From the UHGV virus genome UHGV-1378242: DNA of 23,616 nucleotides; one strand, given 5' to 3'. Below are positions 156-20,911 of this stretch, piece by piece. Under the pieces are notes generated by a model that was not told where the DNA came from, ran no database searches, and saw only the letters and a program-made list of their open reading frames with translations. Position 1 is the stretch's first letter. The number at the start of each line of letters is the position of its first letter. The position numbers were made by a program, and so were the translations under genes. Source of the DNA: a virus.

Positions 156-486
156 ATCAGCAGCAGAGCGCAAAGCCGCTCAGAGAGCCAGACAAGCTGC
201 ATCTGGTGTGCGTAAGCTGGAAATTGTGCTTGATGCTCAGGAAATTGAAATGCTGGAGCGTAACTGTGCCACGCGTCGCCCCGGGCGTGCGCCTTACGAA
301 TTTGGTGAGTATATAGCGTTACTGATCCGCCAGGATGATGCACGCGTGCACGGGCGTATAAAATCGATCAGCAGAAAACGTTGCGGTAAGTGCGGCGAGA
401 GAGTTCCTGTGAATTCATGCCCGTGTGATGGTGACTCGCAATGCTGGGTGACTAAAGGCTGGCATGAAACGAAATTAATAGTGTGA
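148..486 (+). CDS. Hypothetical small basic protein with a C-terminal Cys cluster (CxxC-x8-CxC-x5-C), putative zinc ribbon
   Basis: ATG at 148 with GGTG 7 nt upstream; the track ORF 145..486 starts 3 nt earlier at TTG. 112 aa. Stop TGA 484-486 lies inside the palindrome GTGACATGTCAC. An intrinsic terminator follows at 536-561. Confidence 0.55.
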   Translation: MAKSAAERKAAQRARQAASGVRKLEIVLDAQEIEMLERNCATRRPGRAPYEFGEYIALLIRQDDARVHGRIKSISRKRCGKCGERVPVNSCPCDGDSQCWVTKGWHETKLIV

Positions 487-494
487 CATGTCAC
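483..494. repeat. Copy 1 of the perfect 12-bp palindrome GTGACATGTCAC
   Basis: Exact 12-mer also at 2748-2759 and 20073-20084. Each copy lies at the 3' end of a transcription unit, next to an intrinsic terminator hairpin. Confidence 0.6.
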
Positions 495-3329: not shown

Positions 3330-3406
3330 TGGCGTGGCATGCAGGATTCGAACCTGCGACCAACCGCTTAGAAGGCGGTTGCTCTGTCCAACTGAGCTAA
3401 TGCCAC
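3330..3406 (-). tRNA. tRNA-Arg (anticodon UCU, reads AGA), phage-borne argU-like
   Basis: Minus-strand 77 nt: GTGGCAT-TA-GCTC-AGTTGG-AC-AGAGC-A-ACCGC-CTTCTAA-GCGGT-TGGTC-GCAGG-TTCGAAT-CCTGC-ATGCCAC-G-CCA. Perfect 7-bp acceptor stem, D-loop, T-loop GGTTCGAATCC, anticodon loop CU-UCU-AA and encoded CCA. It resembles E. coli argU as I recall it, with compensatory stem changes. Confidence 0.9.
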
Positions 3407-4054: not shown

Positions 4055-5734
4055 ATGGCGGAAACAACTAAAGAGCGATTGAACAAACAGTTCGCACAAC
4101 TTGAAAGCGAGCGTCAGTCGTTCGAGCCGCACTGGCGCGAGTTGAGTGATTACATCAACCCGCGTGGTTCCCGCTTTCTGACTTCTGAGGTTAACCGTAA
4201 CGATCGACGCAATACACGCATTATTGATTCGACCGGGACTATGGCGGCGCGCACTCTCGCCAGCGGCATGATGTCAGGCATCACAAGCCCCGCGCGTCCG
4301 TGGTTTCGCCTGGCTACGCCAGATCCTGAAATGATGGATTATGGCCCTGTTAAGTTGTGGCTTGAGGCGGTGCAGAACCGCATGAACGATATGTTCAATA
4401 AGTCGAATCTCTATCAGTCGCTGCCGCAGTTATACGGAAGCCTCGGCACATACAGCACTGGTGCAATGGCAGTGCTGGAGGATGACGAGGACATCATTCG
4501 CACAATGCCATTCCCGATAGGCAGTTACTACCTGGCTAACTCACCTCGTGGCAGTGTGGACACCTGTTTTCGCAAGTTCTCTATGACTGTTCGTCAGCTT
4601 GTTCAGGAGTTCGGACTAAATAACGTCAGCGAATCCGTAAAAAGCATGTGGGAAAGCGGCACCTACGAGAAGTGGATTGAAGTGATGCATTCGGTTTACC
4701 CGAACATTGACCGCGATACATCGAAGCTGGATAGCAAGAACAAGCCATTCAAATCGGTTTATTACGAGGTTGGTGGCGATAACGACAAGTTGTTGCGTGA
4801 GTCCGGATTCGATGAGTTTCCAATTATGGCTCCGCGCTGGGAAGTTAACGGCGAAGATGTTTATGGATCATCATGCCCGGGTATGCTGGCGCTTGGATCT
4901 GTTAAGGCATTGCAGCTTCTTCAGAAGCGCAAGTCGCAGTTGATTGATAAAGCCACCAATCCGCCGATGGTTGCTCCGACTTCCCTCAAGAATCAGCGTG
5001 CCTCCCTTCTTCCTGGCGACATCACGTATATCGATCAGATTACTGGTCAGGATGGTTTCAGGCCTGCTTATCTGGTTAACCCCAGTACAGCAGATTTGGT
5101 GGCAGACATTCAGGACACTCGTCAAATCATTAACAGCGCCTACTTTGTCGATCTGTTCATGATGTTGCAGAACATCAATACCCGCTCGATGCCTGTTGAA
5201 GCGGTGATCGAAATGAAAGAAGAAAAACTTCTGATGTTGGGGCCGGTTCTGGAGCGTCTGAACGACGAATGTCTTAATCCTCTCATTGACCGCTCTTTCT
5301 CGATGATGGTGCGTAAAAACATGCTGCCGCCACCGCCAGACGTGATGGAAGGTATGCCCCTGAAGGTCGAATACATTTCCGTCATGGCTCAGGCGCAGAA
5401 GTCTATCGGCCTGTCCAGTCTGGCGTCCACGGTTAACTTCATTGGTCAACTTGCGCAAGCGAAACCAGAAGCTCTCGACAAACTCAACGTTGATCAGGCG
5501 ATCGATGCATTCGCTGATATGTCCGGAGTGTCTCCAACCGTCATTGTTCCGCAGGAACAGGTTGAGCAGGCTCGCCAGCAACGGGCACAGCAACAACAGC
5601 AGCAACAAATGATGGCGATGGGGATGGCGGCGGCACAGGGTGCCAAGACGCTAAGCGAAGCTAAAACTTCGGATCCGAGTGTTTTGTCAGCTATGGCGAA
5701 TGCAGTTAGTGGTCAGGGTGGGCAATCACAATGA
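4055..5734 (+). CDS. Portal (head-to-tail connector) protein, T7 gp8-like
   Basis: 559 aa, first gene of the coupled structural operon, followed by scaffold and capsid. Gln/Met/Ala-rich C-terminal tail (…QQQQQQQMMAMGMAAAQG…) resembles the T7 connector C-terminus as I recall it. GGAG 9 nt before the ATG. Confidence 0.8.
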   Translation: MAETTKERLNKQFAQLESERQSFEPHWRELSDYINPRGSRFLTSEVNRNDRRNTRIIDSTGTMAARTLASGMMSGITSPARPWFRLATPDPEMMDYGPVKLWLEAVQNRMNDMFNKSNLYQSLPQLYGSLGTYSTGAMAVLEDDEDIIRTMPFPIGSYYLANSPRGSVDTCFRKFSMTVRQLVQEFGLNNVSESVKSMWESGTYEKWIEVMHSVYPNIDRDTSKLDSKNKPFKSVYYEVGGDNDKLLRESGFDEFPIMAPRWEVNGEDVYGSSCPGMLALGSVKALQLLQKRKSQLIDKATNPPMVAPTSLKNQRASLLPGDITYIDQITGQDGFRPAYLVNPSTADLVADIQDTRQIINSAYFVDLFMMLQNINTRSMPVEAVIEMKEEKLLMLGPVLERLNDECLNPLIDRSFSMMVRKNMLPPPPDVMEGMPLKVEYISVMAQAQKSIGLSSLASTVNFIGQLAQAKPEALDKLNVDQAIDAFADMSGVSPTVIVPQEQVEQARQQRAQQQQQQQMMAMGMAAAQGAKTLSEAKTSDPSVLSAMANAVSGQGGQSQ

Positions 5735-6027
5735 CAGATTACGAAGATGATCAACTGAAAGAAGAAAACGCCCGTAAGCAACGTGACATGGCACAGCGTG
5801 AAATTGATGACATTCGCTTTGTCATGAGCAGTGAACAGGGGCGTCGCGTTGTCTGGTCGGTGCTGGAGAAAGGCCGTGTGTTTTCCGCTATCTCACCGAT
5901 GGACGCTATGGCAATGGCATTTAATGAGGGGCAACGCAATCTGGCGCTGGAACTGTTTCAGCGCGTTATGGCGCATTGCCCTGAACAGTATTTGAAGATG
6001 GCCAAAGAGGCCAGTGAACAGGAGTGA
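5731..6027 (+). CDS. Hypothetical protein (98 aa) between portal and scaffold
   Basis: ATG overlaps the portal stop (ATGA). Charged, helical-looking sequence. Confidence 0.55.
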   Translation: MTDYEDDQLKEENARKQRDMAQREIDDIRFVMSSEQGRRVVWSVLEKGRVFSAISPMDAMAMAFNEGQRNLALELFQRVMAHCPEQYLKMAKEASEQE

Positions 6028-19593: not shown

Positions 19594-19767
19594 GTGTTTT
19601 TAATTATTTTGAGTGTGATAATTTCTGGTGGGTTGTTATTTATTGACCGCTACAAATATTTTCTTAACCCTCAGACTCAAGCTATTTGCTGGTTCATCTT
19701 TGTTGTGCAGGGAATAGTTCTTGTTGCAAGCCTTATTGAGGGGAGGCCTCTGATTTTTACTGGGTAA
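19594..19767 (+). CDS. Small hydrophobic protein (57 aa, two predicted TM segments)
   Basis: GTG start 4 nt after AAGGAA. Absent from the ORF track, probably because it is under 60 aa. Start codon and reality uncertain. Confidence 0.35.
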   Translation: MFLIILSVIISGGLLFIDRYKYFLNPQTQAICWFIFVVQGIVLVASLIEGRPLIFTG

Positions 19768-19779
19768 ATAGGTGACTAC

Positions 19780-20076
19780 ATGCAAGCGATAGGATTCATT
19801 GTTTATATCGTCGTTGGCCTTTTTCAGTTGGCAGCAATTATGGCTGGGCTTGAATCATGGTGGGGATTGCACTGGATAATTGCAGCCCCCATTGCTTTCA
19901 TCGTGAGCTATATTCCATTTGTTGGAGCGATTGTTGGTATGGTTGGTGCTGTGGATGTATGGCGGTGGGAGTGGTGGCAGGCTGGCCTTCTCTTCTTTGG
20001 TGGGATCATCTTTGCTATTGTCTGCGGTGGAATGTCATCATTTTTCGAACGGCTATCATTCAGAAAAGGAACGTGA
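19780..20076 (+). CDS. Small integral membrane protein (98 aa, about three TM segments, charged C-terminus), holin-like topology
   Basis: ATG with AGGTGA upstream. Very hydrophobic and Trp-rich. Last gene before the operon terminator. Stop TGA lies inside palindrome copy 3. Confidence 0.55.
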   Translation: MQAIGFIVYIVVGLFQLAAIMAGLESWWGLHWIIAAPIAFIVSYIPFVGAIVGMVGAVDVWRWEWWQAGLLFFGGIIFAIVCGGMSSFFERLSFRKGT

Positions 20077-20084
20077 CATGTCAC
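20073..20084. repeat. Copy 3 of GTGACATGTCAC
   Basis: Exact 12-mer, 2 bp upstream of the late-operon terminator hairpin. Confidence 0.6.
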
Positions 20085-20085
20085 A

Positions 20086-20110
20086 GGCCGCTTTCGCGGC
20101 CTTGTTTTTA
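20086..20110 (+). terminator. Rho-independent terminator closing the late structural operon
   Basis: GGCCGC (20086-20091), loop TTTC, GCGGCC (20096-20101), then TTGTTTTTA. Confidence 0.75.
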
Positions 20111-20269
20111 ACGAATGCCACCGCCGCCCGGGCGGGAATCCGCAGAACGCCCACCGCAGCGGGAGCCGTCAGCGGCGGTATCGCTGTCGTGCTGACAACG
20201 ACCGGCAAAGGCCTGAGTTGAAGCTACCAGAGACAACAAAACGAACAGTGCAGCAAATGCTTTTTTCAT
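20108..20269 (-). CDS. Secreted micro-protein (53 aa) with a classical signal peptide and two Cys in the mature part
   Basis: MKKAFAALFVLLSLVASTQAFA then GRCQHDSDTAADGSRCGGRSADSRPGGGGIR. Charged n-region, hydrophobic core and an AxA-type cleavage site. Host-like codons (CTG, CGT, GGT). Candidate own promoter TTGACG-N16-TATAGA upstream. The track shows it only as part of the longer 77-aa ORF 20108..20341. Confidence 0.45.
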   Translation of the reverse strand: MKKAFAALFVLLSLVASTQAFAGRCQHDSDTAADGSRCGGRSADSRPGGGGIR

Positions 20270-20340
20270 TGTGACATTTCCATCTATAAGCCACCTCAAT
20301 GTGGCGTCAATGAGTGTAGCACTGACTTTTGTTTCGTCCA

Positions 20341-20362
20341 CAAAAAAGCCCGCAGCGCGGGC
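20341..20362 (-). terminator. Rho-independent terminator for the minus-strand operon
   Basis: On the minus strand: stop TAA, then GCCCGC-GCT-GCGGGC, then TTTTTTG. Confidence 0.7.
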
Positions 20363-20911
20363 TTACTTTTCTTCAGGTTTGTTGTCTTCAGATTTCTTCT
20401 TGATGCTTGGTTTTTGTCTAAGAACGAAAATACCAGCCACTGCAACAACTGTACCGATCACTGTGCCAGCTAGAACTTCATGACCTGTTAAACCTAATAA
20501 TGTTGCACAAGCTACTGTAAAAATAGTTGCACTCAGGCCAAACCACTGCCCACGTTTATCTCTATTAATAGCCCCGTCAAGTGCCTTTTCCTCCATTTTC
20601 TGGCGGTGAGCAAACTCCTTCTCCGTCAGCTGGAAGATGCGTTCGGGGGCATCAGGTAAAATATCCTGATACCCGCGAAGCAGATAGGGGGGAGGAAGCG
20701 GACCCTGAAACGCATGGTGAGCGACAACTATCTCCTGAATTTCAGGGCGATCAAGAACTCTTGTGAAGGCATCTGGGTGTTGAATGATCTCGTTACTTAG
20801 CCCTTCCTCAACTTCCTCGAACTCAGTTTCTTCGTTATCACTTGGTTGCCCAATAGATTTTTGCATATTTGTCGAAGGACATTCCTTTAGCTTCTGGTTT
20901 TCCTCTTGCAT
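20363..20911 (-). CDS. Membrane protein (182 aa): acidic soluble N-terminal domain and two C-terminal TM helices; function unknown
   Basis: TM segments WFGLSATIFTVACATLLGL and VLAGTVIGTVVAVAGIFVL, then a Lys-rich tail. Its 5' end overlaps the upstream 108-aa gene out of frame by 74 nt, or 29 nt if Met16 at 20866 is the start. Confidence 0.6.
   Translation of the reverse strand: MQEENQKLKECPSTNMQKSIGQPSDNEETEFEEVEEGLSNEIIQHPDAFTRVLDRPEIQEIVVAHHAFQGPLPPPYLLRGYQDILPDAPERIFQLTEKEFAHRQKMEEKALDGAINRDKRGQWFGLSATIFTVACATLLGLTGHEVLAGTVIGTVVAVAGIFVLRQKPSIKKKSEDNKPEEK

Follow-up and report, generated by a model that had tools for sequence, protein, structure and literature searches.

A mobile prophage cassette carrying a conserved gene for a small two-cysteine peptide predicted to be exported

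The DNA analyzed here, referred to as the window, is the whole 23,616-nucleotide (nt) stretch UHGV-1378242; it is an epsilon15/phiV10-like podovirus prophage of Escherichia coli, genus Uetakevirus. Its plus-strand virion operon closes with genes for an 824-amino-acid (aa) protein and for two small membrane proteins of 57 and 98 aa, and directly after it lies the subject of this study, a minus-strand gene encoding a 53-aa pre-peptide (Table 1). On the other side of this small gene is a minus-strand accessory block, which encodes a DUF2335 membrane protein, a 113-aa open reading frame (ORF), and a Bro-N antirepressor-like protein. Positions 19780-20420 are 98% identical to the phages phiv142-3 and HEMP4, and the 273-bp region containing the small gene is 100% identical in a prophage of the E. 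coli bloodstream isolate SF-468. The locus had previously been described from its letters alone (the sequence-only reading), and the fate of the claims made then is given below with the results that bear on them.

Table 1 Positions of the features of the locus in the window.
Feature	Position	Strand	Remarks
Very hydrophobic 57-aa ORF	19594-19767	+	End of the late operon
Very hydrophobic 98-aa ORF	19780-20076	+	Last gene of the late operon; phrog_3075
Mobile moron cassette, 293 bp	20072-20364	-	Terminator hairpin, promoter, 5' leader, small gene, terminator hairpin and palindrome
Palindrome GTGACATGTCAC	20073-20084		Cassette edge; overlaps the stop of the 98-aa gene
47-aa shadow ORF, considered not to be a gene	20078-20221	+	Replacements, stops, broken in homologues
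Late-operon intrinsic terminator	20085-20110	+	Stem 20085-20102; T-run up to 20110, on the small gene's stop codon
Protein-coding gene, 53 aa and stop (pre-peptide)	20269->20108	-	ORF; MKKAFAALFVLLSLVASTQAFA then GRCQHDSDTAADGSRCGGRSADSRPGGGGIR
Mature 31-aa peptide (predicted) GRCQHDSDTAADGSRCGGRSADSRPGGGGIR	20111-20203	-	3060 Da, isoelectric point 8.1, invariant Cys25 and Cys38
Sec-type signal peptide (predicted) MKKAFAALFVLLSLVASTQAFA	20204-20269	-	Predicted signal peptidase I cut after Ala22; n-, h- and c-region features, -3/-1 rule
Shine-Dalgarno-like GGAA	20278-20281	-	8 nt before the ATG
Inverted repeat GCCAC-N6-GTGGC, interpreted as an RNA stem-loop close to or at the 5' terminus of the messenger RNA	20290-20305	-	Covariation, conserved position
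Predicted extended -10 TG-c-TACACT	20313-20321 (TACACT 20313-20318)	-	TAnnnT conserved in 13 genera
Weak -35-like TGGACG	20335-20340	-	16 nt upstream of the -10; 4/6 consensus
Bidirectional terminator hairpin	20346-20364	both	8 pairs, 6 of them G-C; ends the DUF2335 gene and insulates the cassette; right-hand breakpoint
DUF2335 membrane protein	20363-20911	-	PF10097, expectation value (E) 2e-15; phrog_3996, moron category

The minus-strand gene and its antisense reading frame

The small gene is present in 532 of 5426 complete E. coli genomes (~10%), and 142 small-gene loci were collected for comparison. Three phage records together with RefSeq carry it, its annotated counterparts being Orf11 of phiv142-3, gp43 of TL-2011b, and WP_000708858.1, and the PHROGs profile phrog_14503 matches it from end to end (residues 1-53 against profile positions 1-53 of 53, E 2.3e-40). 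Among 34 distinct E. coli-type nucleotide alleles there are 19 variable sites, of which 18 fall at codon position 3 and 18 are synonymous. When a 25-codon core was compared with other genera, the proportion of synonymous differences (pS) ranged from 0.67 to 0.97 and that of non-synonymous differences (pN) from 0.00 to 0.39; against enterobacterial homologues, pN/pS was 0.00-0.20. The comparison with Buttiauxella is the extreme case, with 15 of 19 synonymous sites of this core differing and none of 56 non-synonymous sites. We regard this substitution pattern as decisive evidence that the minus frame is translated and is under strong purifying selection at the protein level. The sequence-only reading had favored this gene, describing a 53-aa pre-peptide with a 31-aa mature part rich in Gly, Asp, and Arg and carrying two Cys; all of these are present in the sequence, and the choice of strand is borne out both by the substitutions and by the breakage of the plus-strand ORF in most homologues. 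Another PHROGs family, phrog_3117, is an over-extended 77-aa version of the same gene whose GTG start lies within the tail of the preceding (upstream) terminator. The extension is not conserved among homologues, and we consider it an artefact.

On the plus strand, the sequence-only reading had noted an ATG in a palindrome, preceded by a good ribosome-binding site, and a 47-aa ORF crossed by the late-operon terminator. The ATG and the ORF exist, with the coordinates corrected to those of Table 1. The AAGGAA taken as the ribosome-binding site is also there (20066-20071), but it merely forms the last codons (K-G-T-stop) of the 98-aa gene. The terminator does cross the ORF, its hairpin beginning 7 nt after the plus-strand ATG. 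The plus ORF lies exactly in register, antisense to the minus gene, so that third-position changes in the latter strike first codon positions in the former: changes that are synonymous in the minus gene give A>T, R>W, G>S, and I>V replacements in the plus ORF, several alleles contain premature stops, and in most distant homologues the plus frame is interrupted. Stops in the antisense frame can arise only opposite the Leu codons TTA and CTA or the Ser codon TCA, and the mature peptide has no Leu and only four Ser, which explains why the plus frame is open; by a genetic-code estimate that treats the six Ser codons as equally used, this openness is expected by chance about one time in two. The ORF terminates exactly opposite the TCA codon of Ser17, and alleles in which the Ser36 codon has changed from TCC to TCA gain a plus-strand stop. 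On these comparisons the plus ORF is a non-functional shadow of a Gly/Arg/Ala/Asp-rich coding strand, and calls of the phrog_25977 type, a family that it matches with an E of 1e-27, are artefacts.

The overlapping ORFs had also been likened to small toxin/antisense loci, in which case the plus ORF or an antisense RNA would control a small toxic peptide. Type I toxin-antitoxin systems include hok/sok, ldr/rdl, ibs/sib, and tisB/istR, and the locus shares with them a small ORF with a hydrophobic N-terminus and an overlapping ORF on the opposite strand, the latter having a Shine-Dalgarno-like AAGGAA and an existing family annotation. This likeness finds no support in the behavior of the plus ORF, which gathers replacements and stops as described and is cut by a strong terminator, nor in a consensus scan, which found no plus-strand promoter between the late-operon terminator and the start of the small gene. 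A scan of the region against Rfam gave no family match and no known small RNA, the only hit being a sub-threshold Trp-leader match on the upstream terminator. The products differ as well: type I toxins are hydrophobic, whereas the mature part here is hydrophilic, rich in Gly, Arg, Asp, and Ser, carries two Cys in a conserved core, and is predicted to be exported. The gene is, moreover, stably carried in about a tenth of complete E. coli genomes. We therefore consider a type I-like or other sense/antisense pair extremely unlikely.

Predicted signal peptide and two-cysteine core

The N-terminal segment MKKAFAALFVLLSLVASTQAFA has the layout of a Sec-type signal peptide, with MKK (+2), a 14-residue hydrophobic core (best 10-residue Kyte-Doolittle mean of 2.9), and TQAFA followed by G, which places A-F-A at positions -3 to -1. 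These features recur in 79 homologues, where the -1 residue is Ala in 71 and the -3 residue is A, S, V, or T in all 79, the presequence has a median length of 22, the first six residues are net positive, and the core is strongly hydrophobic. Identity across the same homologues is 34% in the presequence compared to 74% in the mature core. A presequence that drifts while its A-X-A site is conserved is the signature of a cleaved Sec signal peptide and not of a membrane anchor. The comparison thus shows that the first 22 residues keep the properties expected of a signal peptide despite drift in their sequence, and the canonical signal peptide proposed from this one copy holds. From these patterns we infer that the peptide is exported, cleaved after Ala22, and closed by a disulfide between Cys25 and Cys38; "transmembrane anchored", the name under which it is filed, is probably a misnomer for a cleaved exported peptide.

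If the signal were left uncleaved, the product would instead be a 53-residue membrane-anchored micro-protein with a short periplasmic two-Cys tail, possibly an MgrB-like modulator of a sensor kinase or transporter. NCBI and phage records do name the family "transmembrane anchored protein", and some relatives tether the same module by a real transmembrane helix or a lipobox. AlphaFold2 modeling of the full pre-peptide gave only the signal helix, a single confident helix over residues 2-22, with a predicted local distance difference test score (pLDDT) of 65. Nevertheless, the hydrophobic stretch spans only ~14 residues before a polar c-region begins, the canonical A-X-A site and the Gly after it are kept at the frequencies given above, and free drift of the presequence beside a near-invariant tail is typical of cleaved signals. 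An uncleaved form is decidedly unlikely in our view, and the "anchored" wording of the phrog_14503 and phrog_3117 labels conflicts with the conserved signal peptidase site. The window copy does not fit the lipoprotein lipobox [LVI][ASTVI][GAS]C either, as AFAG-R-C puts the Cys at +3. In cyanobacterial, Beijerinckiaceae, and other relatives, the A-X-A site is replaced by a lipobox-like VTSC or LTAC and a Ser/Gly linker, which indicates that extracytoplasmic location is the property conserved.

The mature peptide, GRCQHDSDTAADGSRCGGRSADSRPGGGGIR, contains 8 Gly, 5 Arg, 4 Asp, and 2 Cys. In an alignment of 80 sequences the invariant columns are C, A, G-S-R-C, R, R, and G-G, and both Asp of D-x-A-x-D are found in at least 90%; the 27-residue core motif reads C-x3-4-D-[RT]-A-[AS]-D-G-S-R-C-G-x-R-x4-[RK]-P-G-G. 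A single-sequence search returned 57 homologue clusters from Enterobacterales, all called "transmembrane anchored protein" or unnamed, a profile search returned 658 clusters at 90% identity, and an exhaustive HMMER search 386 clusters at 50% identity. Scanning one genome per species gave 57 loci, including Mesorhizobium, Rhizobium, Agrobacterium, Devosia, Methylobacterium, Bradyrhizobium, several cyanobacteria, Vibrio, and Bacteriovorax. As aligned here, the two-Cys core hardly varies between enterobacterial phages, Rhizobiales, and cyanobacteria.

Of the representatives listed, about half are stand-alone pre-peptides of 45-70 aa, and the remainder hold the module in larger proteins. One architecture comprises a signal peptide, the module, a transmembrane helix, and a cytoplasmic domain of ~150 aa; in others the module lies at the C-terminus of a larger protein or occurs in two or three tandem copies. 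A four-cysteine variant (CxCPY...CGxRSAYSxPGGxxPxCY) is found in larger secreted proteins, in one of them beside a bacterial SH3 domain (SH3_3), which was the sole real match in the family scans of the fusion proteins. This variant was seen in the relatives P0165, P0185, P0186, P0203, and P0126 with the pattern CxCPY...[ND]G..CG.RSA[YW]S..GG..P.C[YD], in up to three tandem copies, and no Pfam family covers it. In a PDB sequence search, a weak match of the three-repeat, four-cysteine relative P0186 to the Nanos zinc-finger protein (E 0.002) was rejected as cysteine-pattern bias.

The core resembles, as a lead only, the extracellular calcium-binding domain Excalibur (PF05901), whose motif is DxDxDGxxCE. 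Both are short extracytoplasmic modules, and D-T-A-A-D-G-S-R-C-G overlays the motif at D1, D5, G6, and C9. Unlike in Excalibur, an invariant Ala takes the place of the middle Asp and a Gly that of the Glu, so the canonical calcium ligands are missing, and PF05901 did not match any of 29 family members even at E 1. In P0185, an Excalibur-like segment can be recognized by eye upstream of the domain, with no Pfam match at E 0.1. An Ivy-type lysozyme inhibitor was also considered and rejected, because the CKPHDC-like "CQHD" is not conserved in distant members.

The family is already annotated in RefSeq and in PHROGs, where phrog_14503 (53 aa) is labeled "membrane associated protein" in the moron category, yet no experimental basis for these labels was found. 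In the paper library searched, no article contained the motif strings or the family name, and no functional study of the family was found.

Cassette boundaries and predicted expression signals

The surrounding 3.5 kb was compared by BLAST with the 142 loci. Irrespective of the flanks, homology blocks start at ~20072 (20064-20085) and stop at 20347-20375, which is where the two terminator hairpins lie. Almost the same limits were given in the sequence-only reading, whose description of a unit with its own regulatory signals is supported by this position between two terminators. Among 85 E. coli-type loci we distinguished 9 promoter-side and 8 stop-side flank clusters, which occur together in no fewer than 45 combinations. 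The cassette is found, for example, at the end of the late operon in Uetakeviruses, downstream of ant in TL-2011b, and next to lysis genes in other prophages. In phiV10 and the O157 typing phages the gene is absent, and only the terminator and ~20 nt of the gene's 3' end are kept. The phiV10 remnant (L141 2535-2562, corresponding to window 20108-20130) consists of the 3' coding end fused to the terminator, which points to a past deletion or recombination within the gene and not to primary absence.

Base composition also sets the gene apart. The G+C fraction reaches 0.70 in the part coding for the mature peptide (20095-20184) compared to 0.38-0.49 around it (about 0.44; 0.41-0.47 in the flanks), a difference that is partly due to the Gly/Arg/Ala/Pro-rich peptide. 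With its variable presence, its flanking terminators, and this composition, the gene is, as judged from these comparisons, a moron, an accessory gene inserted after the late (virion) operon and ahead of the antirepressor region.

The late-operon terminator is annotated as a terminator in the phiV10 record, and it ends at the small gene's stop codon, so the two convergent units barely overlap; its hairpin is predicted to form the 3' end of the small-gene messenger RNA (mRNA) as well. The palindrome GTGACATGTCAC at the cassette edge, within which the TGA stop of the 98-aa gene falls, has three exact copies in the window (483-494, 2748-2759, and 20073-20084) against 0.08 expected, and a one-mismatch copy at 5783-5794. 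All three exact copies are intergenic or at gene ends, and two of them adjoin a terminator hairpin in the same layout, AAAACAA-hairpin-T(n)-GTGACATGTCAC. The palindrome is present once, ~27 nt after the stop codon, in 78 of the 142 loci, where it marks the breakpoint of cassette homology. It may be a module-junction sequence or the binding site of a regulator; a CRP site was rejected on account of the wrong spacing.

Upstream of the small gene, a TAnnnT hexamer with invariant T, A, and final T is found in 13 homologues, each from a different genus, always 6-7 nt upstream of an inverted repeat. The repeat GCCAC-N6-GTGGC that the sequence-only reading had pointed out is present, and in 11 of 13 genera the most stable local fold is a hairpin at this same position. 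RNAalifold, run on an alignment made from sequence only, gave four pairs, each with compensatory double changes. The arms read GCCAC/GTGGC, GCCGC/GCGGC, GCCGTC/GATGGC, CTGC/GCAG, or TTGCC/GGCAA depending on the genus, with loops of 3-6 nt and with complementarity kept. Pairing that is maintained while both sequence and loop length change argues for an RNA hairpin and not for a protein operator. We infer that the transcript starts at about 20305-20307, 0-2 nt from the hairpin.

The sequence-only reading had placed the promoter elsewhere, at TTGACG (20305-20310) and TATAGA (20283-20288) separated by a 16-nt spacer, in which case the repeat in the spacer could be the operator of a dimeric repressor. 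TTGACG matches the -35 consensus at 5 of 6 positions, the spacing is acceptable, and the whole region is conserved among E. coli-type copies. Across the 12 other genera, however, neither hexamer is conserved, in contrast to the upstream TAnnnT. The scan did not report TATAGA, which is missing the nearly indispensable final T, and a transcript starting 7 nt after it would have a leader of ~7 nt, truncating the GGAA Shine-Dalgarno sequence. The repeat, for its part, shifts in sequence and spacing between genera with its complementarity kept, which is unlike an operator. This promoter and operator is unlikely, and an upstream extended -10 promoter followed by a 5' mRNA hairpin is the likely arrangement that replaces it.

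Hairpins of the ompA-leader type stabilize E. coli mRNAs, and 5'-terminal stabilizing stem-loops were reportedly described for the ompA leader by Emory, Bouvet, and Belasco in 1992. The hairpin in the cassette resembles them in being short, G+C-rich, 0-2 nt from the predicted start, and conserved in pairing and not in sequence; it differs in being shorter (5 bp) and in that its start is predicted from the sequence. A purine-rich GGA/AGG element occurs at the same distance before the start in 13 aligned homologues, and between the hairpin and this element the leader of the homologues contains a conserved CA-rich CUACACAUGG-like stretch. At 20282-20289 and the equivalent positions of loci L004-L016, a CA-rich CUACACA(U/C)GG-like stretch was seen across many genera, the window having a divergent UUAUAGAUGG. 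This stretch is more conserved than its surroundings and could be a translational enhancer or the target of a small RNA or protein.

Proposed role of the peptide

Taken together, the best overall explanation is that the cassette is a moron encoding a small exported two-Cys peptide, which we consider probable. In the proposed mechanism, the cassette would be transcribed alone, independently of the late operon, from its sigma-70 extended -10 promoter. The mRNA would start with the GCCAC/GUGGC stem-loop, which by analogy with the ompA leader may guard the 5' end against decay, and translation would begin at the MKK ATG behind the GGAA Shine-Dalgarno sequence. Sec would then export the pre-peptide, signal peptidase I would cleave it behind Ala-Phe-Ala22, and DsbA would join Cys25 and Cys38 to give a periplasmic loop peptide of 3.06 kDa.

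Small exported envelope proteins are known from other morons, namely Bor and Lom of lambda, gp15 of HK97, Cor of phi80 and N15, Llp of T5, and Spackle and Imm of T4. The present gene resembles them in being an extra gene between conserved phage modules, in having its own (predicted) promoter and terminators, in its differing base composition and variable presence in close relatives, and in the N-terminal signal that would target the product to the envelope. It differs in showing no sequence or profile similarity to them, in the much smaller size of the mature product (31 aa), in the absence of a lipobox from the E. coli form, and in that the core domain is not confined to phages, being common in Rhizobiales and cyanobacteria as well.

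Several points weigh against this explanation. The favored promoter has only 8 of 12 consensus matches, which is below the threshold of the consensus scan, and within this window alone TTGACG is the better -35. In this copy, the hairpin after the small gene's stop has no U-run on the gene's strand, which makes termination of the small transcript uncertain; homologues in other contexts have the same hairpin followed by a proper T-run on that strand. The NCBI family name implies a membrane anchor and not a cleaved signal peptide. The AlphaFold2 model of the mature peptide, built with 80 sequences, reaches only moderate confidence (pLDDT 75) and shows a short turn and a beta bridge of one residue; a Foldseek search of the PDB with this model returned nothing below E 3.9 and no structural neighbor. 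PDB sequence searches with profiles A3 and A5 also returned nothing, and Pfam, NCBIfam, and PADLOC scans of the peptide, 29 diverse members, and 10 larger fusion proteins gave no match for the domain. When all ORFs in the 57 genomic loci were clustered, no conserved neighbor or partner gene emerged, the top neighbor clusters being antisense artefacts or phage structural genes shared by related prophages. With no conserved neighbor and no known relative, the functional part of the explanation is drawn solely from architecture. Finally, the phiv142-3 study, the sole functional work on a phage with this gene, analyzed orf6 and orf10 and not orf11, which is this gene, and orf11 was neither among its 14 serum-induced genes nor among the mutants made (PMC7724020).

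From the near-invariant charged two-Cys core, from the use of this core in free, lipid-anchored, membrane-tethered, SH3b-fused, and repeated forms, and from the absence of a partner gene, we suggest, with low confidence, that the peptide may act outside the cytoplasm as a small binding module, its target being a divalent cation or a conserved component of the envelope, and may serve as a lysogenic conversion factor in envelope protection or phage exclusion. A secreted signaling or antimicrobial peptide, whether arbitrium-like or a Sec-dependent bacteriocin, would share with it the 50-53-aa pre-peptide, the Sec signal, and a conserved C-terminus ending in PGG-x, and two members gave weak, sub-threshold matches to a Phr pheromone model. 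Those matches, however, are located in the signal peptide and score far short of the cut-offs set for the family. The small gene has no linked gene for a receptor, immunity, processing, or export, and almost every context brings different flanks. The conserved part is the whole 27-residue core and not merely a short C-terminal tag, and the same module is embedded in larger envelope proteins; we judge such a role very unlikely. An arbitrium AimP-type peptide in particular was rejected, there being neither a conserved AimR-type neighbor nor a short variable mature peptide.

A broader and speculative form of the binding-module proposal, about which we are doubtful, is that the core is a previously undescribed extracytoplasmic mini-domain found from Enterobacterales to Rhizobiales, cyanobacteria, and beyond. 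Temperate phages would spread its free form as a conversion factor; by binding a cation or an envelope component of universal occurrence, this form would alter susceptibility to phages or the robustness of the envelope. Should the peptide indeed affect phage susceptibility or the envelope, the known conversion factors would gain a widespread member of very small size. The cassette occurs in about one in ten complete E. coli genomes, including prophages of extraintestinal pathogenic (ExPEC) and avian pathogenic (APEC) strains; its 293-bp unit shuffles between phage types, and few parts of these mosaic genomes are as conserved as the peptide core. For annotation, the minus gene should be kept as real, the 47-aa plus ORF and the 77-aa extension treated as artefacts, and the "transmembrane anchored" name regarded as probably wrong. 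The 3-kDa domain is easily synthesized for structural and binding studies.

Some further observations concern the neighboring genes. The 98-aa ORF has a weak, sub-threshold match to the holin family PF16079 (E 0.027). The DUF2335 gene is common to only 6 of ~85 related loci, which marks the promoter-side position as a hypervariable accessory-gene slot; phiv142-3 has there orf10, for which an effect on serum resistance has been reported. In the SF-468 prophage (L142 from 5693 onward, corresponding to the window from ~22765 onward), the next plus-strand gene encodes an endosialidase-type tailspike, suggesting a K1-capsule-specific Uetakevirus, and the window ORF at this position runs past the end of the window. 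A tRNA-Arg gene (anticodon TCT) lies on the minus strand at 3330-3406, in an ORF-poor stretch between the large terminase gene (1198-2673) and a portal-like gene (4055-5734).

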